Positions 14,323 to 41,199 of a DNA stretch of 64,000 nucleotides are shown here, piece after piece. A model generated the notes under the pieces. That model saw nothing but the letters and a program-made list of their open reading frames with translations. It did no database searches and was not told the DNA's origin. Source of the DNA: an uncultured bacterium (GTDB taxonomy: Bacteria; Patescibacteriota; Minisyncoccia; Moranbacterales; UBA2206). Location of the stretch: the NCBI GenBank assembly GCA_903841185.1, contig CAIMIV010000012.1:86-64085 (forward strand), given 5' to 3'. The first letter of the stretch is position 1, and every line of letters begins with the position of its first letter. Both the position numbers and the translations under genes were made by a program.

Positions 14323-14700
14323 TCATTCCTCCTTTTGTCATTAGATCACTAGATTTTTAAAAATTATTCCGAAAGAAACAATCCTTGCTATTACGCTCAG
14401 CTATTAACTTTTGCCATAGGCAACGTCTCCCATAAGTGATTGATCTTAGGCCTCAACTATCATCAAAATCCGACGATTTCGATCTTGTCGAGATCTCCTT
14501 TATTCAATTTACAAGGTTCTATGTCATATTGACTCATATTAATCAATAACTCACTCTAAGGTAAATTACCAGCCAAGTCAAGGCAAGATACAAAAACAGG
14601 GCTGTCTCTATTCTGTTTTTTCCTGCATGTACGTTCAGTCAATCCTTATTCGCCATAGGCGGATTGATGTTTGTGGCTAAATTATAAATTTAGATGATCA

Positions 14701-15321
14701 TCAAAATCTCTTGTGCAGTATAAATATAATCAGCAAAGTTATGGCTCCAAGTAACCACCCACCCAAGACATCACTCATCCAATGCACTCCCAGATAGATC
14801 CGCGACAAGCCCACCAGCAAAATCAGCATCGCCGCCAGAAAGGCTACTCCATTCTTCTGCCAGCGTTTTTGGCACCACGACCAAAGGATAAAAAGCAACG
14901 CTCCATAGAAGACCATGGCCGTCGTAGCGTGTCCGCTGGGAAAAGCGTAGCCGTCACTGGATATCAGGGAAAAACTCGCGTCCGGACGCGTTCGCCCAAT
15001 TGTGATTTTCAATATTCGTTCCAGCAATTCACCCACAACTACGGAAGCGATTAGAAATTGCATCGAACGCCATCGCTTGAACAATAGCAAAGCCAGCAGC
15101 ACAGCTGCTCCAAAATATATGATTACGCGCATACTACCTAGAACCGTAAAAAATAAAAAAACATCGGTCAGCAAAGGACTGCGCACGCCCATCACCCACT
15201 GCATTATTTGTTCGTCCATGGCAGTTAACGGACCGGCCAGCCAAACACTCCAGACCAAGACAAAAAACAAAACTGAAAGCCCCATCATCAACCCCAACAA
15301 TTTTCGCTTATCTTTTTCCAT
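14701..15321 (-). CDS. PAP2-family membrane phosphatase (undecaprenyl-diphosphatase-like)
   Basis: PAP2 motifs 'KxxxxRTRP', 'FPSGHA' and 'SRIYLGVHWMSD', with multiple TM helices. Confidence 0.8.
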   Translation of the reverse strand: MEKDKRKLLGLMMGLSVLFFVLVWSVWLAGPLTAMDEQIMQWVMGVRSPLLTDVFLFFTVLGSMRVIIYFGAAVLLALLLFKRWRSMQFLIASVVVGELLERILKITIGRTRPDASFSLISSDGYAFPSGHATTAMVFYGALLFILWSWCQKRWQKNGVAFLAAMLILLVGLSRIYLGVHWMSDVLGGWLLGAITLLIIFILHKRF

Positions 15322-17112: not shown

Positions 17113-17832
17113 TCAGAGCTTGCCCCGAATCTCCATAAGTTCTTCTACGGACATATTTGCAACATCCGTTAGATCCACCCCCATTGCTTGCAGTTTTTTG
17201 TATTTCTCAGTCATGTCAGCCACAATCTCATCCACTTCAGAAGCAAGGCAGAGCAACTGGAATGCACCCGTGTCAATGACGGCCAGCAATTCTGGATGAT
17301 CAAAGTCACTCAGAGCCTCATCCAATCGACCGGGCTGCACCATCATAACATTATTTTTCCTGGAAAAAATTTGTTCTACCATCATTTTTCCAGATGTAGC
17401 TGGTCTTCCCATATCAATGCGCATTCCGTCTTTCATCAAGTCCGCAGCCATAGCGAATTCGTCAATCTCCACAATAGAAGCGTTTACGCTCTCGACAGAA
17501 AGACCTTTGTCCCAAATCACCTTTACTCCATTCTCGAGCTCAAAAATGAAAACACCTTCATCCATGATGCCAGTGTCTCTTGCCTTTGCAACAGTCAGAC
17601 CGGCACTGCCTCCCATTCCATTATTGCGAAAATCATTGAGCTCCAAAACAAGTGGCGTTGATTTGAAACCAAGCCCCTTGCCAGACCCCTGTCCAAATTT
17701 GGAGCCAATGTCCCAGAGGTTCCACAACATCTCCCCACTTACACCATCGGGCAACCCCATAATGGCGCTCTCCGGAATTATTTTGAAACCATCCCTATTT
17801 TTGCCGAACTCAAAATACCTTTCCTTATCCAT
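17113..17832 (-). CDS. Hypothetical protein
   Basis: 239-aa ORF with a Gly-rich N-terminal half. No recognised domain. Confidence 0.45.
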   Translation of the reverse strand: MDKERYFEFGKNRDGFKIIPESAIMGLPDGVSGEMLWNLWDIGSKFGQGSGKGLGFKSTPLVLELNDFRNNGMGGSAGLTVAKARDTGIMDEGVFIFELENGVKVIWDKGLSVESVNASIVEIDEFAMAADLMKDGMRIDMGRPATSGKMMVEQIFSRKNNVMMVQPGRLDEALSDFDHPELLAVIDTGAFQLLCLASEVDEIVADMTEKYKKLQAMGVDLTDVANMSVEELMEIRGKL

Positions 17833-17984
17833 GCCACTCCTCCTTACAAGTTTTCTGGTTGACTAGCGCCTAGATGACAAAACTCGTCCTATTGATTTTT
17901 AAAAGAAATCTTCATCAAAATTGATATTTCCTGATGAATAAATAATCATAGCACAATTGCAGAATTTGTAAATGCCTCACATCA

Positions 17985-18065
17985 ACTCTAAAAACAGGCC
18001 TTTCCCCCGCTCTGTTTCTTTTCTTCGTGTATAAGTCAGCCATCAAAATCTTTTGTGATTAGTCC
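17985..18065. repeat. ~80-bp direct repeat, copy A (terminator hairpin + 'GTGTATAAGTC' + 'TTTTGTGATTAGTCC')
   Basis: Near-identical to 20033-20113, with about 4 mismatches. Confidence 0.8.
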
Positions 18066-18128
18066 ATTCATCCATCACTACTCTCCAAAAAGGAAACGAT
18101 TCTTGGGAAAAATTAAATATTGAATTTT

Positions 18129-18701
18129 TTATTTCCAAAAATAATTATACATCAATAGCGAAATCAGTATTGAAAAGTAAGCTACTGTAAATACAAAGTA
18201 TATAAAATTACTAAATTTTAAGCTTTTTAAGGTCTTCATCATTTTTGCATCACTATATATTTTTTCAAATGATTTATTTATATTTAATGAAAAAACATCC
18301 AAATATTTTAGCGTTATGTTTCGTTGGAAGATTCTATTAAACACAAACATCACTGCATATGCTACGGGTAAGCCAGCAACAAATCCAGATATACTCATAA
18401 ATACCAGCATTATAAAAATCAACCCTGGTTCTTTACTGGTATTGGTCGCAATATCTGCTTGTTTAGATGCAAGCAAGAATAACCCCATTCCAAACACAAA
18501 CATTCCAAAGAAATAAAAAAAGAAGAGATAATTTCGATAAGACTTCTTAATCTCTTCATTTTTTTTCAAATACTCAACTTGCCTATTAAACTCATCTAAT
18601 TCTTCTCGGCTTGGCTTAGAATAAAGTCTCGCCCCCTTCATAATAATTTTTATGATAATTGGTATCAAAAGTAATGAGAATATGCTGATAAAAATATACA
18701 T
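18129..18701 (-). CDS. 4-TM membrane protein (hypothetical)
   Basis: 190-aa ORF with four predicted hydrophobic helices and a short charged loop. Confidence 0.5.
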   Translation of the reverse strand: MYIFISIFSLLLIPIIIKIIMKGARLYSKPSREELDEFNRQVEYLKKNEEIKKSYRNYLFFFYFFGMFVFGMGLFLLASKQADIATNTSKEPGLIFIMLVFMSISGFVAGLPVAYAVMFVFNRIFQRNITLKYLDVFSLNINKSFEKIYSDAKMMKTLKSLKFSNFIYFVFTVAYFSILISLLMYNYFWK

Positions 18702-18970
18702 GAAGGTTTTTTATTATTTAGAATAAATTTTATTTACTAAGACAACGATATATCTATTCGCCACCAGTTCATTATATTTTTATTATATCACAAATTTTTA
18801 TAAAACAAAAAACACCCATCCATTGAGTGCTTGATTTTTTTACATATATTTCAGTATTAAAATCTTCCCATAGGTTCAAGAAAGCCGCATAAAAAAAGTG
18901 GCCATATCTGTATAGATACCAGCCACTCATGCGTTCTATAAAAACGCTAATTTGTTGGGTGTAATTACCC

Positions 18971-19930
18971 TTAAATATCAATGGGCTCATCAGGGGTTTT
19001 CTCCGGATAGAAGCTGCTAAAAAACATTGAGTCTGTTGTGGCTCTTTTGATACCGTTAGGATCGATAAATCGCGGATGGTCAAGCTCCGTAATTATCTTT
19101 CTATTCAGACTTGTCCGCGGCCATTCCTTCAATGCCAGATAAGGCAACCCAAGGGATCTCTGATGTCGCTTCCATTCCTCCCTCTGCAGATTTTCCGCAT
19201 GGATACAAAAATCAATTGGTTTGACCTCTTCGAGGACTGAATTTTTGACACCGGGAAGATTAATCTGATTCTCTATAGGAAAACGATATACCAAAAAACT
19301 TTCTATGCCATCAAATCCATAGTTATCAAATGGCGCATTTAGTGAAAGTTCATCCTCAGGAAAATAAAGCAACTTATTCATTTCCTTCGTCAAAGAACTT
19401 GGCCACGCATGATATGAACAAAATCCCGTCAGGTCCAATGAATGACAGATAAATCTTTCAATATTATAATCATACCTGATGCCATTATGTTCCAATCCCA
19501 TTCGACCCCATGCCTCAAGGCTAGTAGAAAAATCCGGATTCTTCACTCCTGTTACCGGCTCTAAAATCATCGGTTCGCCATTCTCATCCTCCTTGGTAAT
19601 CAGAAATAACCGTGGTTCCACAAGAACCTCTTCCTGAATCAAAGTTTCTGGATCCATTAGAAATATTTTGTCATAAGACACCACCGCTCTGAAATCAAGT
19701 CCAACGATAACAATATCCACATCATTGAAACCCCCCGTAAGTGAACTTCCGACAACATACAGCCCGCAGCCTTGAAAAAAGTCCTTATTTTTTTCGGAAA
19801 ATTCAAGAACTTTAGCGATGCAGCTTAATATATGCCTTGCTTGGCCACAGCTAAGTTTTTCCAGCCAGGACATCACCTCTCCACCAAAACCAAATCTTGT
19901 CAGATAAGTATTCATTGAAATCCCCCTCAA
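18971..19930 (-). CDS. Nucleotidyltransferase-fold protein (Pol-beta-like superfamily), function unknown
   Basis: Motif 'VVGSSLTGGFNDVDIVIV' fits the hG[GS]x(7-13)DhDh nucleotidyltransferase signature. A ~230-aa C-terminal extension has no recognised domain. Confidence 0.5.
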   Translation of the reverse strand: MRGISMNTYLTRFGFGGEVMSWLEKLSCGQARHILSCIAKVLEFSEKNKDFFQGCGLYVVGSSLTGGFNDVDIVIVGLDFRAVVSYDKIFLMDPETLIQEEVLVEPRLFLITKEDENGEPMILEPVTGVKNPDFSTSLEAWGRMGLEHNGIRYDYNIERFICHSLDLTGFCSYHAWPSSLTKEMNKLLYFPEDELSLNAPFDNYGFDGIESFLVYRFPIENQINLPGVKNSVLEEVKPIDFCIHAENLQREEWKRHQRSLGLPYLALKEWPRTSLNRKIITELDHPRFIDPNGIKRATTDSMFFSSFYPEKTPDEPIDI

Positions 19931-20032
19931 ACCAAAGTTTTATCCGTTAACTCCGTTAATTTCTAGACCACATTCCCTTGATAATAAAAAGAACTTGATT
20001 AATAATACTACGTTAAACAAGCATAACTGTCA

Positions 20033-20113
20033 AATAAAAAACAGGGCTTTCCCCCGTTCTGTTTCTTTTCTTCGTGTATAAGTCAGCAATCAAAATCTTT
20101 TGTGATTAGTCCT
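20033..20113. repeat. ~80-bp direct repeat, copy B (16S rRNA 3' trailer, processing-stem strand plus terminator)
   Basis: 'TTTTGTGATTAGTCC' at 20099-20113 is complementary to 'GGACTAATCACAAAA' at 21895-21909 on the other side of the 16S gene. The two would form an RNase III-type processing stem. Confidence 0.7.
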
Positions 20114-20203
20114 GTTCGAGCCTAGCTTTTACCAACCGAAGTTGATAAACGACCATTAGATGATTGTAGTTCCGAAGAACTACTGTTCACCACTACTCCC
20201 TAG

Positions 20204-21770
<1,567 letters not shown>

Positions 21771-22285
21771 AAAATTGCAAACTTCCGAAGAAATTTACAA
21801 CTACCTGGTATCTAATGAATCCAGGAATTTGTTTTGCAGTCTTGCGACCACAAAGTTTTTTAGCTCTTATCAAACCACCCGAAGGTGATAAGAAAGGACT
21901 AATCACAAAAAATTGCGATTTTGTCTAAATCTTTGATTTAGCTACAAAATCGTATCCCGAGAACTCGGGAAAGACTCCATAAACTAAAATCAAATTTGAT
22001 TTATACATTACATTCTGATAGAGCTACTAATTCTATCAAATGTAGATTCTGAACATATACATGTATATTCAATTGTTAAGGAAGCTATCTTTTGAGCTCA
22101 CCCGAGGAGTGCGAACAAAAAACACAGCGGTAAAAATATTTCAGTCAATATTTTCATTGCTGTATCTTCTCTTGTCACGTCGCTTGGGAGCGACTGTGAA
22201 TTGTTCGAATACTAATTTTAACTATTATTCGTTTTTTGCTTTTTTGTTGTTAATCTTTAAGTGACTCTTATTTGAGTACTTGTGT

Positions 22286-23618: not shown

Positions 23619-24410
23619 TTACTTTTTAATGTGGATGGTGCCGACACTTATATTCTTATGGATATCTTCACTATGAATAGATTTGCTACCGCCATAAACT
23701 GTCTCCTGTTTATTATCTTCCAGTACTCGAGCGGTTTCGCCATTGACCATAAAACTGGAATGAGCCGCCCCATCCTGTTGTTCATGAGCCTGATTGACAC
23801 CCGTGGTTTCTGGCGTCGCCAACCCTCCACCCAGTTCATATCCCACCCCTTCCCGTACATGCACCACATCCAAACCTTTTAGACCATCTTGTTCCTCATT
23901 ATTGGCATCCAAGACGCTCACCGATTCCGTATCCGGATTCTCCTCCGACATGTGCGTGATTGCAACAGGTACGCCTTTGTCCGCACGCGCCTCCTGTGCA
24001 ACTGCACCCCCCAACACAATCAGCACGGAAGCAGCAATCATAGCGGCTTCCAGGGGCGATTTTATGGAGGCCCATAACATAATTTGTCCGCCGAATTGCT
24101 TAAGTTTGCCCGTTGTCCACAAATCCCCCTTCATAAAACCCATGGGAATTTTTTCGATGGTTTTGGTCACGATATCCTCGGCGTCCTCCGGGGTGATGGT
24201 TTCATAAAATGACAACATCTCTTCCGCGCTGATACCCATCATGCTTTCTATCTTGGCCAGCTCCGCTTCTACCTGCTCAGCTTTCTGAAACAGCGCCTCT
24301 TTTTCTTCCGGATTGGCTGTGCCTTCTATTTGATTATTAATAACCTCAAGGTCTCGCGTATTATTTTTCAAATCTTCTGATGAAACTACCCCTCTCATTT
24401 CCTCAAACAT
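23619..24410 (-). CDS. Hypothetical protein with central hydrophobic segment
   Basis: 263-aa ORF. No recognised domain. Confidence 0.45.
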   Translation of the reverse strand: MFEEMRGVVSSEDLKNNTRDLEVINNQIEGTANPEEKEALFQKAEQVEAELAKIESMMGISAEEMLSFYETITPEDAEDIVTKTIEKIPMGFMKGDLWTTGKLKQFGGQIMLWASIKSPLEAAMIAASVLIVLGGAVAQEARADKGVPVAITHMSEENPDTESVSVLDANNEEQDGLKGLDVVHVREGVGYELGGGLATPETTGVNQAHEQQDGAAHSSFMVNGETARVLEDNKQETVYGGSKSIHSEDIHKNISVGTIHIKK

Positions 24411-24573
24411 AAAATTTATTTTTTCTTTTTATTATTTATTGTTTATTACTTGTATTATACCACAAAAATTCTGTTTGCAAAAAAAGAAAAAAGCCCTTAT
24501 TTATCGGGCTTTTTTGCAAATTACTTTTTCCTAATTTCATCCATCGCCAGCGGCATGAATTTTTTCAAGACTT

Positions 24574-25527
24574 TCATAATTTCAAGAGGTAAAGTCTTTC
24601 ATTTACAATTTGTTGTTCTGGATATAATTCAGCTCTAGCATGCCTATATAATAAATATTTTGTCAATAATTTTCCGATGCTGTCTACTTGATTAAAATAT
24701 TCTTCAGAGAAAAATTTAATACTTTGCCCTGCTGCACCTTCAAAACCTCCAAGCTTTTCTAAATTAGATACTAGTGCGCTAACAACCACATTCACAATTG
24801 CATTAACAGAAGATATGCCAAAATTCATAATCAATATTTTCTTATATGATTCACCTTTGCTGATTGCATTCAATTTGAACATTTCATCCTTAATCTTACT
24901 ATAAGAGAAACTGGAAGTTCCATACTGATCCAAATAGATAAACCAAAAATATCTTAACTTTATATCCAGATAATAAAAATATACATACAAAGCAATTGGA
25001 CCGACAACGACAAGGTCTGCGATGGAAACTATGACTAAAAATTCAATGTTTTGTTTTATCCCCACAAGAAAACAAATAACGATAACCCCAAAATAGAAAA
25101 CAAATCCCATAAAATAATAATTAAAAAATAATTTTATTTTAATTTTCATTACTGGAATAAAAATATTTTTTGCTATTGTAAAACTTTCTTTGTCAGATAT
25201 ATTTTCTTTGTCGAAAAAAGAATCAATCCATATTACCTTTTCAATAAAAAACAACATCCTCATAAAATATATATACATCAGACAAAATGCTCCCCAAATA
25301 AGAATCCACGCAATAACTATGAATATAGTCATGCCAGAACTTGTAGAATCAATATTCTCATTTCCATTAATAATCTTTAAAATTGGAAAAGAAAAAAATA
25401 AGATTAAAAATGGCCAAGTTAGTAAAATCACTCTCTTGAAAAGGGAGCTCTTTCTTTTATATATAAACTGTGCTATCTCCTTTGTTATGGATAAATAACT
25501 CGGGGAAGCGTTGATTACCTTCTTCAT
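24574..25527 (-). CDS. Polytopic membrane protein (hypothetical)
   Basis: 317-aa ORF with several predicted hydrophobic helices. Confidence 0.45.
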   Translation of the reverse strand: MKKVINASPSYLSITKEIAQFIYKRKSSLFKRVILLTWPFLILFFSFPILKIINGNENIDSTSSGMTIFIVIAWILIWGAFCLMYIYFMRMLFFIEKVIWIDSFFDKENISDKESFTIAKNIFIPVMKIKIKLFFNYYFMGFVFYFGVIVICFLVGIKQNIEFLVIVSIADLVVVGPIALYVYFYYLDIKLRYFWFIYLDQYGTSSFSYSKIKDEMFKLNAISKGESYKKILIMNFGISSVNAIVNVVVSALVSNLEKLGGFEGAAGQSIKFFSEEYFNQVDSIGKLLTKYLLYRHARAELYPEQQIVNERLYLLKL

Positions 25528-25551
25528 TATATCAAGGTAGGTTTTTAATAG

Positions 25552-25824
25552 TTACAATCCCAGTTCAACATCTGAAAGACTAGCCTTATCAAGATCAATA
25601 TCGGGTATAGAATTTAAATCACTCTCAATCGCATCAATATCAGCATCATTTGATGATGGCGATATTACTACTTGATTATTTATATTTGTCGCAGGCTGAA
25701 CAATACTCGTTGAATTTTCTGCTTTCATTATTTGTTTATTACCTTTCAGAACAACCGCAACCACGAGGATAATTGCAATTATAGCTATACCAACGAGCGC
25801 TGTGATGATTTTTTTATTTTTCAT
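25552..25824 (-). CDS. Small single-TM protein (hypothetical)
   Basis: 'MKNKKIITALVGIAIIAIILVVAVVL' N-terminal TM helix. Confidence 0.4.
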   Translation of the reverse strand: MKNKKIITALVGIAIIAIILVVAVVLKGNKQIMKAENSTSIVQPATNINNQVVISPSSNDADIDAIESDLNSIPDIDLDKASLSDVELGL

Positions 25825-25859
25825 TTTTTTTAATTACCATAAATTTAGAAGGTTAATTT

Positions 25860-26816
25860 TTATTCAATAACCACCGCGTCATTTGTGTTATTAATTGTGC
25901 TTCCTTCTTTTGATGTTTGTGCTTTTAAATCTTTAATATCCACAAAGATTGTTTCATGCACATAAGTTCTAATGTCAGCAGAATCATCATGAACAATTTT
26001 CAAAAATTCCTTAGCCTCTGCTAAAGATTCCCTAAATTCACCCTCTGAATGTCCACAAGTAATTGTTTTGGTTTCTTTCAACTTTATTGTATACGCAATG
26101 TAATCATCGCTAAATTTATCAATTTTTGTCTGCAGCTCAACTGCATGATTTTTTATTACAATAGTATCTAGCTTCATCTCATCAAAGCGAGCAATAAATT
26201 TATTGATCCTGCCAACTAGATTTGCGTAAACTTGTGTATACTTGGTGCTTATATTATCAAAATTATTAGTTTTTTCCTGCACTTTTTCTTGAATTTTAGC
26301 ACATTTTTCTTCGGTAAATTTTTCTTTAAATTTACCGGTAAAATCATCTTTCACTTGTTTTAATTTTGCCAATGATTCCTGCCTGCTCATCTTCCATTGC
26401 GCCCTCTCTTTGGCTATAATACCAAGCTTTGGATCCCCTATAGCAACTACTTTCTTTGGAGCAACAGCTGCCTCGCATAAGTTATTTGATCCATCGTAAC
26501 TTTTAAGACTTTTGCAATATTTATCACATTTAGTCTTTTCATATCCCTGTGAAGAACAAAAAGTATTAACTTTTCCATTATAATATTTAATCTGTATTTT
26601 ATTAATCTCATTGTCATTTGAGTGTATATGTATTCTAGCCTGATAAACCGGGCTATTTGGATTGGTTGGATCAGTTCTTGGATTAATAGTATGATTATAT
26701 ACAGAATCAGAAATTGAGCTATAGCCACCTTGTGAATCATACCAGCCTCTTGACTCAAATGGAGACAAAAAAATTAACATAAACAGCATACCCCATATTT
26801 TCTTCATTTTTCTCAT
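25860..26816 (-). CDS. Secreted protein, paralog of 22907-23575
   Basis: Signal peptide and a shared C-terminal domain with 22907-23575. Confidence 0.55.
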   Translation of the reverse strand: MRKMKKIWGMLFMLIFLSPFESRGWYDSQGGYSSISDSVYNHTINPRTDPTNPNSPVYQARIHIHSNDNEINKIQIKYYNGKVNTFCSSQGYEKTKCDKYCKSLKSYDGSNNLCEAAVAPKKVVAIGDPKLGIIAKERAQWKMSRQESLAKLKQVKDDFTGKFKEKFTEEKCAKIQEKVQEKTNNFDNISTKYTQVYANLVGRINKFIARFDEMKLDTIVIKNHAVELQTKIDKFSDDYIAYTIKLKETKTITCGHSEGEFRESLAEAKEFLKIVHDDSADIRTYVHETIFVDIKDLKAQTSKEGSTINNTNDAVVIE

Positions 26817-28307: not shown

Positions 28308-30227
28308 TTACGTGTTCGAATTTTTAGTTTCATCAATGAGGGCTCGCACACCGGCCAAATCCACGTTCGGTTTGGTTTTTTGCGGTTTGAATTTTTTCGG
28401 AGCGATGTGTGTCATTTGCGATAAACTCATTGATTTTCCCGGAATGGCATGACTGACTAGTTGTGGTTCGTTGGGAATCACTTTCTCCGCTACCGGTGCG
28501 ACTTGGATTGGATTCCTGGGAACATAGCTAGGGGGCGCCACTTGCTTTTCCGCCTCCACTTTTTTTCTGGCGACCATTCGTTGATGCTCTTTCAAACATT
28601 CTCGACAGAAGGCCGGACGAGCCGGGTCGGGTTTGAAAGGCACCGTGATGCTTTCTTCACACACCGAACAAACAGCGGAAAACATTTCTTTTGGAGCTTC
28701 ACTCTTTTTTTCTACCACGACTTCACTCCTAGTTTCTGACTGAGATACTATTTTTTTTGTCTCAAGAATAGTCGTCTCCCGAGGCAAGGTTCTCGTCACG
28801 CTTGGAACAACTGCTTTATTAAAAACATCCTGCTCTCGGATAATCTTATGTTCCACCGGCGCCGGCGCATCTTCCTGCAATTCCACATCATCCATATCAT
28901 CCGTCTCTTCCCTTCCGCCGGCCGGAGCTTCCTTGAACACTTCCATTCCGCTCCACCGCGCAATACGATCCTCCACTTCTGCTTTTGGCCTACCATATCT
29001 TTCTCGCGTGACTCGAATGATTGTTTCTTCGTTCCCGATAGTCTCTGTTAAATCCAGTGGCGGCAAAGTAGTGGCAGAAAAAGCATCCCCTGCCACGCCA
29101 TCAATCATTAGTTTCAAATAAATATTATATTTCGTCAGATTTACAATGTCATTCATCATAAAGACCGGTTCAAATTCCTTCTCCAAATGCTCGGCATCCT
29201 CCGCCCCCACGCGAAAAGACACAATGGTGCCCACATTGCCGAAAACCGCGTCCCGCACCGTAGCATTGCCGTCAAAAATTAATTGGTTGATATATTGATG
29301 CGCCAGAATCAAATTGAGGCGATATTTTCTGGCTTCCGAAAGAATATTGGCAAAAGATTCTGTGGCAAAATTTTGGAATTCATCTACGTATAAATAGAAA
29401 TCTTTTCTCTGCGCTTCCGGCATCGTCACCCGACCCATGGCCGCTAATTGAATTTTGGTGATAATCATGCCTCCCAACAGCCGCATAGAATCTTCTCCGA
29501 TCCTTCCTTTGCTCAAATTGATAATCAATATTTTTTGGTTGTCCATAATCTCAGTCATATCAATCGTTGATTTGGCTTGTCCGACAATGTGGCGAATGAC
29601 AGAAGAAGAGAGAAATTGCCCAACCTTGTTCTGAATAGCCGCCACCGCCTCTTTCCGAAACTTATCCTCCCACTTATCAAACTCATTCAACCAAAAAGCT
29701 TTCACCACCGGATCTTTGATTTTTGGATACACCCGCTTGCGATAGTCCTTGTCATTCATCATGCGGTTCACGCCCAGCATGGTGGATCCGGGATAATCCA
29801 AAAGAGCCAGAATAGTATTATTCAAAATATATTCCATCCTGGCACTCCACACATCCGGCCAGATTTTTTTGAACACCCCCATCATGCCTGACGCCACTAG
29901 ATTTTTTTTGTCATCCGCCACTGACTCCAAAATATTGAAAGCCAAAGGAAATTCCGCATCCGACGGATTGAAATAGACTACGTCATTTACCCGATTGGCC
30001 GGAACCGCTTGCAACATTTTTTCCGCAAACTCACCATGAGGATCCACCACACACACGCCTTCACCATTGCGAATATCCTGGATGGCCATGTTTTCCAACA
30101 GATTAGATTTTCCCATACCGGTTTTTCCGATGACATACATATGTCTGGTGCGGTCATCCCTCTTGATTCCAAAAACTCTTTCCTGATTTCTAAAATTAGT
30201 TTTGGCAAAAAAATTTATCTCTGGCAT
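28308..30227 (-). CDS. P-loop NTPase of the FtsK/HerA/TraG-like (AAA_10/DUF87-type) kind, with C-terminal CxxC...CxxC zinc ribbon
   Basis: Walker A 'GKTGMGKS' near the N-terminus and Walker B 'LYVDEFQ'. C-terminal 'CSVCEES...FCRECLKEH'. Confidence 0.55.
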   Translation of the reverse strand: MPEINFFAKTNFRNQERVFGIKRDDRTRHMYVIGKTGMGKSNLLENMAIQDIRNGEGVCVVDPHGEFAEKMLQAVPANRVNDVVYFNPSDAEFPLAFNILESVADDKKNLVASGMMGVFKKIWPDVWSARMEYILNNTILALLDYPGSTMLGVNRMMNDKDYRKRVYPKIKDPVVKAFWLNEFDKWEDKFRKEAVAAIQNKVGQFLSSSVIRHIVGQAKSTIDMTEIMDNQKILIINLSKGRIGEDSMRLLGGMIITKIQLAAMGRVTMPEAQRKDFYLYVDEFQNFATESFANILSEARKYRLNLILAHQYINQLIFDGNATVRDAVFGNVGTIVSFRVGAEDAEHLEKEFEPVFMMNDIVNLTKYNIYLKLMIDGVAGDAFSATTLPPLDLTETIGNEETIIRVTRERYGRPKAEVEDRIARWSGMEVFKEAPAGGREETDDMDDVELQEDAPAPVEHKIIREQDVFNKAVVPSVTRTLPRETTILETKKIVSQSETRSEVVVEKKSEAPKEMFSAVCSVCEESITVPFKPDPARPAFCRECLKEHQRMVARKKVEAEKQVAPPSYVPRNPIQVAPVAEKVIPNEPQLVSHAIPGKSMSLSQMTHIAPKKFKPQKTKPNVDLAGVRALIDETKNSNT

Positions 30228-40140: not shown

Positions 40141-41199
40141 CTATTTTCCAATAATCCTATATCTCGTGGTTCTCCCCATGCCAATTCGTTGGATTTTTTT
40201 CATATCCAAAAGACGATCCAAGGACTGATTGACGGTCGGTCTAAGTACTCCTGTTTTTTTGACAATTTCACCTGCGGTTACCTCTTCCACCGTTAGCAAG
40301 AAATTCCAAATCAAAAGCTGTTTTGGAGAAAGAATCATTTCCATTCTTTCTGTTGAAAGCAAGTCAATCGCCCGCATAGCCTGCATTTCCAGAATTTTTA
40401 GAAAATATTCCAGCCAGACAATAATCTCCTCTTTTTTTCCGTCAAATGTTTTCTGACTTTTTCGCAATGCCAAATAATATTCCGTTTTATTGTCTTCAAT
40501 TATTTTTTCATGTGAAATATATGGCACGAATCCATAGCCTACTTTTAGTAGTAATAGATTTGTCAGAATTCGCGAAAGCCGTCCATTACCATCTTGAAAA
40601 GGATGGATTTTCAAAAATTCCACCACGAAATTACCCACAATCAAAAGTGGATGATATTTTTTTTCTGCCAAAACTTCCTGTGTCCAAAGCACCAGTTCTT
40701 GTGTTTGCTTCGGGGCCAGATAGGCCCGTGTCGTTTCAAAAACCACACCGATCGGTTTGCCCTCCGCGTCAAACATAGAAACATCATTTTCAGTTTTCTT
40801 ATAATCCCCTCGGTGACGAACATCTTTCTCGGCATATTTCAAAAGTTCATTGTGCAAATGTTTTATGGAACTCTCTGAAAAAGAAATTGTTTTCCACGCG
40901 TTGAATACGTTTTCCAGAAGTTCATAATATCCCTGCACCTCCTGCCTATCTCGATCGCGAAATTTACTGATATTCAGGCCCTTGATAAATCTTTCCACGT
41001 CCGTATCAGACAATCTTGAACCTTCGATTCTAGTGGAAGAGCCTGAGGACGTGACCAATACTGATTTTTTGAGACGGCCTAAAAGCTGAGGTGAAAGGTT
41101 TACTCCCTCAGTCCAACGACCCTTTATTTCATCAATTCTACCAATTTTTGATAGGATTTCAGGTGTTATATTCCCCAGTCTTTGGCTAAAATCAGTCAT
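40141..41199 (-). CDS. Fic/Doc (Fido) family protein with C-terminal winged helix
   Basis: Canonical Fic motif 'HPFQDGNGRLSR'. Confidence 0.85.
   Translation of the reverse strand: MTDFSQRLGNITPEILSKIGRIDEIKGRWTEGVNLSPQLLGRLKKSVLVTSSGSSTRIEGSRLSDTDVERFIKGLNISKFRDRDRQEVQGYYELLENVFNAWKTISFSESSIKHLHNELLKYAEKDVRHRGDYKKTENDVSMFDAEGKPIGVVFETTRAYLAPKQTQELVLWTQEVLAEKKYHPLLIVGNFVVEFLKIHPFQDGNGRLSRILTNLLLLKVGYGFVPYISHEKIIEDNKTEYYLALRKSQKTFDGKKEEIIVWLEYFLKILEMQAMRAIDLLSTERMEMILSPKQLLIWNFLLTVEEVTAGEIVKKTGVLRPTVNQSLDRLLDMKKIQRIGMGRTTRYRIIGK

Follow-up and report, generated by a model that had tools for sequence, protein, structure and literature searches.

Additive flexible genomic islands, fGI-2 among them, and tycheposon-type islands are flanked by repeated 3' ends of tRNA genes (PMC10872708). 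In SAR11 bacteria, the hypervariable region HVR2 lies between the 16S-tRNA-tRNA-23S cassette and the 5S rRNA gene (PMC3448164). Here we describe a locus that shares features with both, in a 64,000-nucleotide stretch of DNA (the window; assembly GCA_903841185.1, contig CAIMIV010000012.1) from an uncultured, Moranbacteria-related bacterium of the candidate phyla radiation (CPR). CPR bacteria have tiny genomes and, to our knowledge, little has been reported on how they gain or swap accessory genes. The subject is a 2-kb segment next to an unlinked 16S rRNA gene, in which a nucleotidyltransferase (NTase) gene and a gene for a small protein with transmembrane (TM) segments are bracketed by direct repeats. 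This segment probably belongs to an additive array of gene cassettes, built up as recombination struck the 16S trailer time and again. It has the look of a recombination hotspot where variable genes accumulate, and not of a two-gene module resembling a cyclic-oligonucleotide-based antiphage signalling system (CBASS). The repeats are homologous to real 16S trailers, the same architecture occurs with other cargo in relatives, and different cargo is present in the same slot.

As in the tRNA-flanked islands, variable cargo lies between direct repeats that stem from the 3' portion of a stable-RNA transcription unit, repeat number and cargo differ between close relatives, and the hosts have streamlined genomes. 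Most of the cargo has no known function, and defence genes can be among it. Unlike in those islands, the repeated site is the 16S trailer (a processing-stem strand plus a terminator) rather than a tRNA 3' end, the units are single genes of 0.65-1.3 kb with their own promoter and terminator, and no integrase or element-encoded mobility gene was found. The locus resembles SAR11 HVR2 in being a hypervariable region anchored beside conserved rRNA genes in a small genome, with membrane and hypothetical proteins as cargo. However, HVR2 comprises about 50 genes between two rRNA genes and is thought to be exchanged by homologous recombination (PMC3448164). The same paper makes no mention of internal rRNA-flank repeats, whereas the locus described here is small and punctuated by trailer copies. 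The arrangement of one-gene units in a row at an anchored site, with a repeated element resembling a recombination site behind each, also recalls integron cassette arrays. Unlike integrons, the locus has no IntI integrase or attI, its repeated element is a directly copied rRNA trailer and not an imperfect palindrome of the attC kind, and its cassettes carry promoter-like sites and terminators (integron cassettes are promoterless). The window locus is not an integron, and its gene pair is not a CBASS.

The complete bacterial 16S rRNA gene occupies 20204-21771 on the minus strand (Rfam RF00177, 1419 bits, model positions 1-1533). No 23S or 5S rRNA gene was found in the 64-kb window by an Rfam scan, so the 16S gene is unlinked; the only other RNA gene in the window is a single distant tRNA-Lys. 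About 90 nt past the 16S end, read on the minus strand, is the sequence GGACTAATCACAAAAGATTTTGAT, which contains the 3' strand of an RNase III-type processing stem (hereafter S). Over 26 nt, S is 88% complementary to the 16S leader at 21895-21920, a long-range leader-trailer complementarity around the mature rRNA. With the leader, the duplex energy (RNAduplex) is -34.0 kcal/mol for copy B, the trailer copy beside the 16S gene, and -38.7 kcal/mol for copy A, the distal one; both are far below the energies of shuffled sequences (about -12 to -15 kcal/mol; -12 +/- 3). The genuine trailer consists, in order, of the trailer start, two small hairpins, S (20089-20112), a spacer and a terminator of a type here called T1 (20038-20060 plus a T-run). 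This G+C-rich hairpin and T-run, called as an intrinsic terminator, closes the repeat 3' of S. A promoter-like TTGACA-17-TAGTAT site follows directly past the 16S terminator, upstream of the NTase gene.

Related loci and contigs are referred to by L numbers. When one genome per species was searched using the 3' end of the window 16S gene, 120 loci were returned, mostly from Patescibacteria. Those closest to the window in 16S identity are L054 (95%; a Moraniibacteriota metagenome-assembled genome, or MAG), L135 (92%), L043 (91%; a Paceibacterota MAG), and L133 and L131 (both 88%). These five share a layout of 16S gene, small hairpins, GGACTAAYCRCAWAAGA, terminator and unrelated protein genes, with no 23S gene; GGACTAAYCRCAWAAGA followed by a terminator is found downstream of the 16S gene in L143 as well. 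Because the window trailer aligns over its full length with those of L054 and L143, copy B is the orthologous, functional trailer of the unlinked 16S gene.

Three further observations concern the 16S gene and its processing stem. S is partly palindromic (ATCACA-AAAGAT-TTTGAT in the window, ATCGCA-AAAGAC-TGTGAT in L043), and therefore the leader strand at 21896-21919 matches S itself (18042-18065 and 20089-20112) with just three mismatches. The 16S gene contains an expansion insert of about 110-150 nt near 20565-20715, an inverted repeat (I5) that folds as a long hairpin. In the otherwise 99% identical assembly L001, this insert and the adjacent helix are quite different in sequence, either as a strain-variable expansion segment or through chimeric assembly of the 16S gene.

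A repeat search placed the two copies of the 76-nt direct repeat at 17990-18065 (A) and 20037-20112 (B). They are identical at 73 of 76 positions (96%), lie in the same orientation and start 2047 bp apart. Pattern searches detected no further full copy in the window (0 matches expected by chance). Only two substantial open reading frames (ORFs) lie between them, for proteins of 314 and 190 aa. A preliminary description of this DNA, made from its letters alone, had reported a near-exact direct repeat of the 16S trailer, complementarity of its stem strand to the leader, a terminator hairpin within it and the bracketing of just an NTase-fold gene and a four-TM gene; all of these hold. The ORF with the GS-x7-DxD motif that it described is also real, but it is 314 aa long from the ATG at 19915, and the 319 aa then given count from an upstream TTG.

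The stretch at 18073-18094 is identical at 18 of 22 positions to TCCTTTCTAGGGAGTAGTGGTG at the 16S 3' end, a score reached by 2 of 500 shuffles, and it lengthens the pairing with the leader. With this remnant of the 16S gene directly on its 5' side, copy A is a derived copy of the trailer: it originally began where the 16S gene ends, and about 70 nt of internal hairpins have since been lost from it. Between the two genes is a relic third copy (M). There, the window has an exact 25-nt match at 18808-18832 to AAGCACTCAATGGATGGGTGTTTTT, the trailer-terminator hairpin of L143 and L144, two close relatives obtained in a metagenome scan with the stem strand. The identity of copy M to these trailers extends back into the 3' half of S. 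Against the 16S-type trailers of L143 and L144, copy M is identical at 56 of 69-70 positions, with an alignment score of 78-79 (shuffle maximum 42), and it was also called as a terminator by a terminator scan. The order on the minus strand is thus 16S gene, trailer with S and T1, NTase gene, decayed trailer with a second terminator type (T2), TM gene, internally deleted trailer with S and T1, and a gene for a 239-aa protein. T1 and T2 both occur in trailer copies of this clade, and they alternate along the array in the window. All trailer copies in the window lie within 6 kb 3' of the 16S gene and in one orientation. The coordinates of these and other features are collected in Table 1.

Table 1. 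Features of the 16S trailer locus, in window coordinates.
Feature	Position	Strand	Details
16S leader, 5' strand of the processing stem	21885..21930 (core 21896-21919)	minus	Complementary to both repeat copies
Genuine 16S trailer, including copy B	20027..20217	minus	nhmmer trailer profile E=9e-60; collinear with the L054 and L143 trailers
Promoter-like site TTGACA-17-TAGTAT	20005..20033	minus	Consensus scan 10/12; consensus match only
Cassette 1 cargo: 314-aa Pol-beta-superfamily nucleotidyltransferase	18971..19915	minus	Ribosome-binding site GAGGGGGA, ATG at 19915
Relic third trailer copy M	18802..18866	minus	Decayed 3' half of S (AAGATTTTAAT), spacer, T2-type terminator hairpin 18808-18832
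Cassette 2 cargo: 190-aa protein with 4-5 TM segments	18129..18701	minus	28% GC; orphan, no family match above threshold
Relic of last 16S bases and trailer start, TCCTTTTTGGAGAGTAGTGATG	18073..18094	minus	Directly 5' of copy A
Repeat copy A	17990..18065	minus	S (18042-18065, identical to B), spacer, T1-type terminator; nhmmer E=4e-14
Conserved right flank: promoter (TTTACA at 17972) and gene for a 239-aa protein of unknown function	17113..17972 (coding sequence 17113-17832)	minus	
Possible fourth, decayed trailer copy	14585..14715	minus	After a PAP2 gene: S-like CACAAGAGATTTTGAT, insertion, T1-like terminator

Trailer copies also flank added segments in three relatives. In L043, S and a terminator are followed by a gene for a 170-aa TM protein, and then by an exact 28-nt copy of S with a different terminator. 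In L143, the trailer is followed by a DsrC-like gene, a 52-aa ORF and then another trailer copy, detected by nhmmer at E=1e-10, in which S is interrupted; T2 is present in the proximal copy and a T1-like hairpin in the distal one. L144 has LeuRS, a C39-like peptidase and NIF3, and then a complete trailer copy that starts with ...GAATCACCTCCTTTCTAGGG, the last approximately 10 nt of the 16S gene. Thus, repeats of the 3' part of a stable-RNA unit flank added segments in the window (B, M, A), L043, L143 and L144. Elsewhere in the Patescibacteria, 102 further 16S loci had sufficient sequence downstream, and a duplicated trailer was present in only one of them, L043, of the same clade. The duplication is therefore specific to this clade, not general.

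Several observations were made on these relatives beside the trailer copies. L043 has an insertion of about 860 nt in its 16S gene near the 3' end (5669-6529, minus strand), with an ORF (MELNPDYIVGLVDGEGSF...) that reads like a LAGLIDADG homing endonuclease. Owing to this insertion, Rfam places the L043 16S end about 940 nt too early, and an apparent second 16S 3' end there was rejected as part of the insertion, not a duplication. L131, a Moranbacteria MAG, has two tyrosine-recombinase genes 3.5-6 kb past its 16S gene (4616-5566, Phage_integrase E=8e-37; 6379-7311, E=3e-33); candidate att repeats around them were just AT-rich gapped alignments and were rejected. In L144 (1744-4726, minus strand), the contig edge cuts a LeuRS ORF of which the C-terminal part remains, and a full-length gene for a different LeuRS comes after it; the two are tandem paralogs upstream of the distal trailer copy. 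L145 was discarded as a trailer locus, its match being a chance one of 24 nt inside a coding region.

Cargo also differs next to the right flank of the array. The 239-aa gene is very rare (three clusters in 5.8 billion proteins), and its homolog in L017 is 70% identical. Window positions 17972-17834 and L017 positions 2615-2753 are identical at 108 of 140 positions, and the first bases of this shared block are precisely those of the -35 hexamer, which copy A approaches to within 17 nt. On the upstream side of the shared promoter, L017 has neither the NTase gene nor the TM gene. Instead, it has a T1-type terminator at the contig start, a 43-aa ORF and a complete type I CBASS, followed by the shared promoter and the 239-aa gene. 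The CBASS (636-2115) consists of a CD-NTase (PADLOC cyclase, 2e-98) and a Cap15 2TM effector (2e-56, Cap15_CD_rec). With a CBASS in L017 at the place of the window's NTase and TM genes, the stretch from the 16S-type terminator to the promoter of the 239-aa gene is a variable slot. L143 and L043 have other cargo again, directly behind the 16S trailer. By reading, unscored, L017 also contains a RAYT/IS200-like fragment at about 2290-2390 (...YHVLNRANGREKIF...). On either side of the L017 239-aa gene is one copy of an exact 19-nt direct repeat, TTTTTTCAAAAAATTACGT (2432-2450 and 3525-3543), each directly behind a terminator; the window lacks this repeat.

These comparisons bear on a simpler explanation, in which the trailer terminator was copied just once, locally, by tandem duplication or slippage. 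The NTase and TM genes would then be normal residents of the locus, and the likeness to the other loci would come from coincidental reuse of a good terminator. The near identity of copies A and B would be expected from such an event, as would the failure to find mobility genes, and NTase homologs elsewhere do lie beside the translation genes ArgRS, GluRS and TruB. However, a single duplication does not account for a third, relic copy with a different terminator type between the genes, for three more genomes with trailer duplicates and unrelated cargo, or for different cargo in the same slot of L017. Nor would copying of the terminator alone be expected to leave remnants of the 16S end on the 5' side of copy A. 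We consider this explanation unlikely.

A metagenomic mis-join at the repeat, with the second copy or the cassette misplaced by assembly, can be set aside with near certainty. The A/B structure, including the three single-nucleotide polymorphisms (SNPs) that distinguish the copies, recurs in assemblies L001-L004, from other samples and assemblers, at 99.5-100% identity. Several contigs do break at the repeats, and one, L003, ends in a hybrid A/B copy. Other contigs span both copies with their SNPs, including the Logan contig L004, which runs from B to A at 100% identity. Because the structure, with its A/B SNPs, is reproduced in independent assemblies, it is not an assembly artefact. The hybrid repeat at the end of L003 (a MEGAHIT contig, 6499-6577) has the left flank and first SNP of copy A and the second and third SNPs of copy B. 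It is possibly a circle or tandem junction, or equally an artefact of the assembly graph.

The two genes of the segment are two separate single-gene cassettes, not one operon. This follows because the pair is not conserved, the GC contents differ (40.8% for the NTase gene and 28.3% for the TM gene, in a window of 40%) and a terminator, the relic trailer copy M, lies in the 270-nt gap between the genes. Both cassettes in the window come with a promoter-like site, and both owe their terminator to a copy of the trailer; the TM gene has its own promoter-like site and uses the terminator of copy A. One cluster of TM protein homologs is known, at 46% identity, and the homolog is encoded between MazG and GluRS. 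No NTase gene was found beside this single homolog, and no TM partner was found beside any of the NTase homologs examined. The 190-aa TM protein has no match above threshold in Pfam, NCBIfam, PHROGs or PADLOC and lacks a cyclic-nucleotide sensor domain. A 242-aa gene upstream of the TM homolog in L020 was considered as a short NTase and rejected, as it encodes a WecG glycosyltransferase. Homology between the TM cargo proteins of the window and L043 was rejected on direct comparison. A small ORF at 18772-19083 (103 aa in the window, 72 aa in some assemblies) overlaps the 3' end of the NTase gene, crosses the relic terminator and is probably spurious.

The preliminary description had noted that pairs of an NTase and a small membrane protein are the minimal architecture of CBASS-like and other abortive-infection modules, with the caveat that motifs alone do not make this NTase a CD-NTase. 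On such a reading, the window genes would encode the synthase of a nucleotide signal and its membrane effector, and would have been inserted together. Like the type I CBASS of L017, the pair places an NTase-fold gene beside a small membrane-protein gene in the same slot, so defence cargo does land here, and a GS-x7-DxD motif and a Pol-beta fold are present. Unlike that system, the window NTase has neither CD-NTase signatures nor a specific fold match. SMODS, Mab21, CD_NTase_C and PADLOC 'Cyclase' models gave no match to it or to any of 18 family members, whereas the L017 CD-NTase, as the positive control in the same PADLOC search, scored 2e-98. The TM protein has neither a Cap15-type receptor domain nor another cyclic-nucleotide sensor, the two genes are separate transcription units and co-occur at no homolog locus, the 270-nt gap between them holds the terminator of the relic trailer, and their GC contents are 12 points apart. 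The proposal therefore fails on the CD-NTase signature, on conservation of the pair, on the relic terminator between the genes and on GC content, and we regard a CBASS-like pair as very improbable.

The 314-aa protein carries GSSLTGGFNDVD, a GS-x7-DxD motif (GSS-x6-DVD; G56-S57-S58 ... D65-V-D67). The Pol-beta pattern hG[GS]-x(7-13)-Dh[DE]h is found on its conserved core, which has the alpha-beta-alpha-beta-alpha-beta NTase fold. D65, D67, G72 and D74 are invariant in 41 sequences of the family, as are F75 and Y81, and an H239-x-E241-N242 motif is near-invariant. The invariant D74 and the near-invariant E241 are candidates for the third catalytic carboxylate. Pfam gives a sub-threshold NTP_transf_2 match over exactly the GSS...DVD stretch, and nothing scored above threshold in Pfam, NCBIfam, PHROGs or PADLOC. 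Searches of PDB sequences with phmmer and the family profile returned nothing significant (just a 27-residue GLD-2 motif match, E ~0.5), Foldseek against PDB gave no match, and no specific structural match to a cGAS-like bilobed fold was obtained. The active-site motif hG[GS]-x7-DxD is shared with other Pol-beta NTases, such as TENT5/FAM46, the aminoglycoside and lincosamide NTases, MNT and the CCA-adding enzymes. Unlike these named enzymes, most of the window protein matches nothing solved (about 190 of 314 residues, comprising N-terminal helices, a middle insert and a C-terminal alpha/beta domain with the H-x-E-N motif), and the family is restricted to CPR bacteria and DPANN archaea.

The family is small, with 21 proteins in a set of 5.8 billion and 64 representatives (E<=1e-3) in a set of 1.84 billion. 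One member is named as from a Woesearchaeota archaeon, and one locus has genes for the archaeal-type ribosomal proteins S19e and L31e; the other loci look bacterial and CPR-like. This is a rare, unannotated CPR/DPANN family with a Pol-beta fold, and it is not demonstrably a CD-NTase. Genes adjoining the homologs elsewhere include ArgRS (with stop/start overlap), GluRS, TruB, MazG, GrpB and a tRNA. At 4 of 7 loci the NTase gene, sometimes with one neighbour, lies within direct repeats of at least 30 nt, compared to 1 of 72 control ORFs. Beside the window, these loci are L005, with repeats of 43 nt at 2615-2657 and 3880-3922; L010, with repeats of 33 nt at about 1181-1213 and about 3234-3266; and L011, with repeats of 118 nt at 4737-4853 and 6741-6858. 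The excess of direct repeats fits mobile cargo. Each 43-nt repeat copy in L005 is followed by a different terminator, as in L043. A 152-aa gene beside the NTase homolog in L005 was compared with the 152-aa gene of the window and rejected as its counterpart. Compact, well modelled, unannotated and common to CPR bacteria and DPANN archaea, the family is a reasonable target for biochemistry.

The preliminary description had also proposed insertion or duplicative recombination at the rRNA trailer, and this part is upheld by the orthology of copy B, the derived state of copy A and the relatives with other cargo at the same place. In the array that we favour, the 16S trailer, that is, S of the processing stem plus the intrinsic terminator, would be the recombination anchor, and each addition of DNA would leave a trailer copy on the far side of the new gene. 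The events may be Campbell-type single crossovers between the chromosomal trailer and circular DNA carrying a trailer-like sequence, by which the trailer would be duplicated on both sides of the insert. The crossover could be homologous, or a recombinase supplied in trans could act on S. Successive events at the 16S-proximal copy would place the newest unit (the NTase) beside the 16S gene while older copies decay distally, exactly the order observed. The NTase would then be accessory mobile cargo, perhaps transferring a nucleotide to an RNA or small-molecule acceptor, and the distal trailer copies may now serve mainly as terminators.

A number of points weigh against an array built in this way. 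No integrase, transposase or other mobility gene was detected in the cassettes or among 30 window proteins scanned. S was not found in phage or plasmid sequences, nor was the NTase found by tblastn in phage and plasmid collections and IMG/VR. The preliminary description had pointed to the 16S trailers of related genomes as a check; relatives without these two genes, carrying other cargo, were found, but neither an empty-site variant of this species nor an excision product was recovered among the contigs found. Two variants of the 239-aa protein (P0079 and P0086), followed as a route to empty-site strains, led only to contigs of the same structure. The left boundaries of the trailer copies vary (the 16S end, -20, or S itself), and so homologous or illegitimate recombination followed by decay fits as well as a precise site-specific process. 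Copies A and B are 96% identical though the L054 trailer is merely about 85% identical (77/91). The last event was therefore intragenomic or recent, or the copies have been homogenised by gene conversion. The cargo of L144 includes housekeeping genes (LeuRS, NIF3), for which genome rearrangement fits equally, and the related loci are short metagenomic contigs from few lineages. Finally, the putative fourth trailer copy after the PAP2 gene is a weak lead: its local score against copy B is 53 (maximum of 42 in 1000 shuffles; best unrelated window tile 44), with an nhmmer E of 0.27. The last codons of the PAP2-family gene (CAC AAG AGA TTT TGA) coincide with its S-like CACAAGAGATTTTGAT at window positions 14698-14715. 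Orthology of the distal copy of L143 to this fourth copy was rejected (score 47, shuffle maximum 59).

Apart from their origin, the distal copies could be functional RNA elements that pair with the pre-16S leader, in cis through read-through or in trans, for RNase III processing or leader titration. This would couple expression of the cassettes to rRNA synthesis or 16S maturation, and it is compatible with an array origin. S is 100% conserved in copy A and in the second copy of L043, and copy A has kept both leader-pairing segments while losing the intervening hairpins, so that it pairs more strongly than copy B (-38.7 vs -34.0 kcal/mol). However, S has been lost or interrupted in copy M, in the distal copy of L143 and in the possible fourth copy, and thus pairing is not generally maintained; the high identity may merely reflect recency. 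Such a role seems quite unlikely to us.

A more speculative extension of the favoured array, which we put forward with considerable doubt, is that small cassettes without an integrase of their own, in CPR bacteria of the Moranbacteria type, use S as a true attachment site. The trailer would then be an rRNA-anchored, integron-like platform served by a host recombinase in trans, accumulating accessory and defence genes such as the CBASS of L017, with the NTase family as one recurrent mobile cargo. S contains an imperfect palindrome resembling ATCRCA-N6-TGTGAT. In this view, the copies of S that persist might also turn cassette mRNAs into substrates for the pre-16S leader and RNase III, or into competitors of them.

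If the array reading is true, the 16S trailer would mark a defined and easily located place to seek strain-specific genes, including defence systems, in thousands of CPR MAGs, and an element of rRNA processing would join tRNA 3' ends as a target of recombination. Trailer repeats break assemblies beside the 16S gene, and may contribute to the poor linkage of 16S genes in CPR bins.

Other genes of interest were identified elsewhere in the window. Upstream of the 16S gene, 23619-24410 encodes a 263-aa protein with an Effector-associated domain 9 (EAD9, E=2e-6). Adjoining it is a block of 26-34% GC (24400-26800) encoding multi-TM and secreted-looking proteins that lack family assignments. Also encoded are a homolog of TrwB/TraG-like type IV coupling proteins that bears a zinc finger at its C terminus (28308-30227) and a Fic-domain protein fused to a winged-helix domain (40141-41199).

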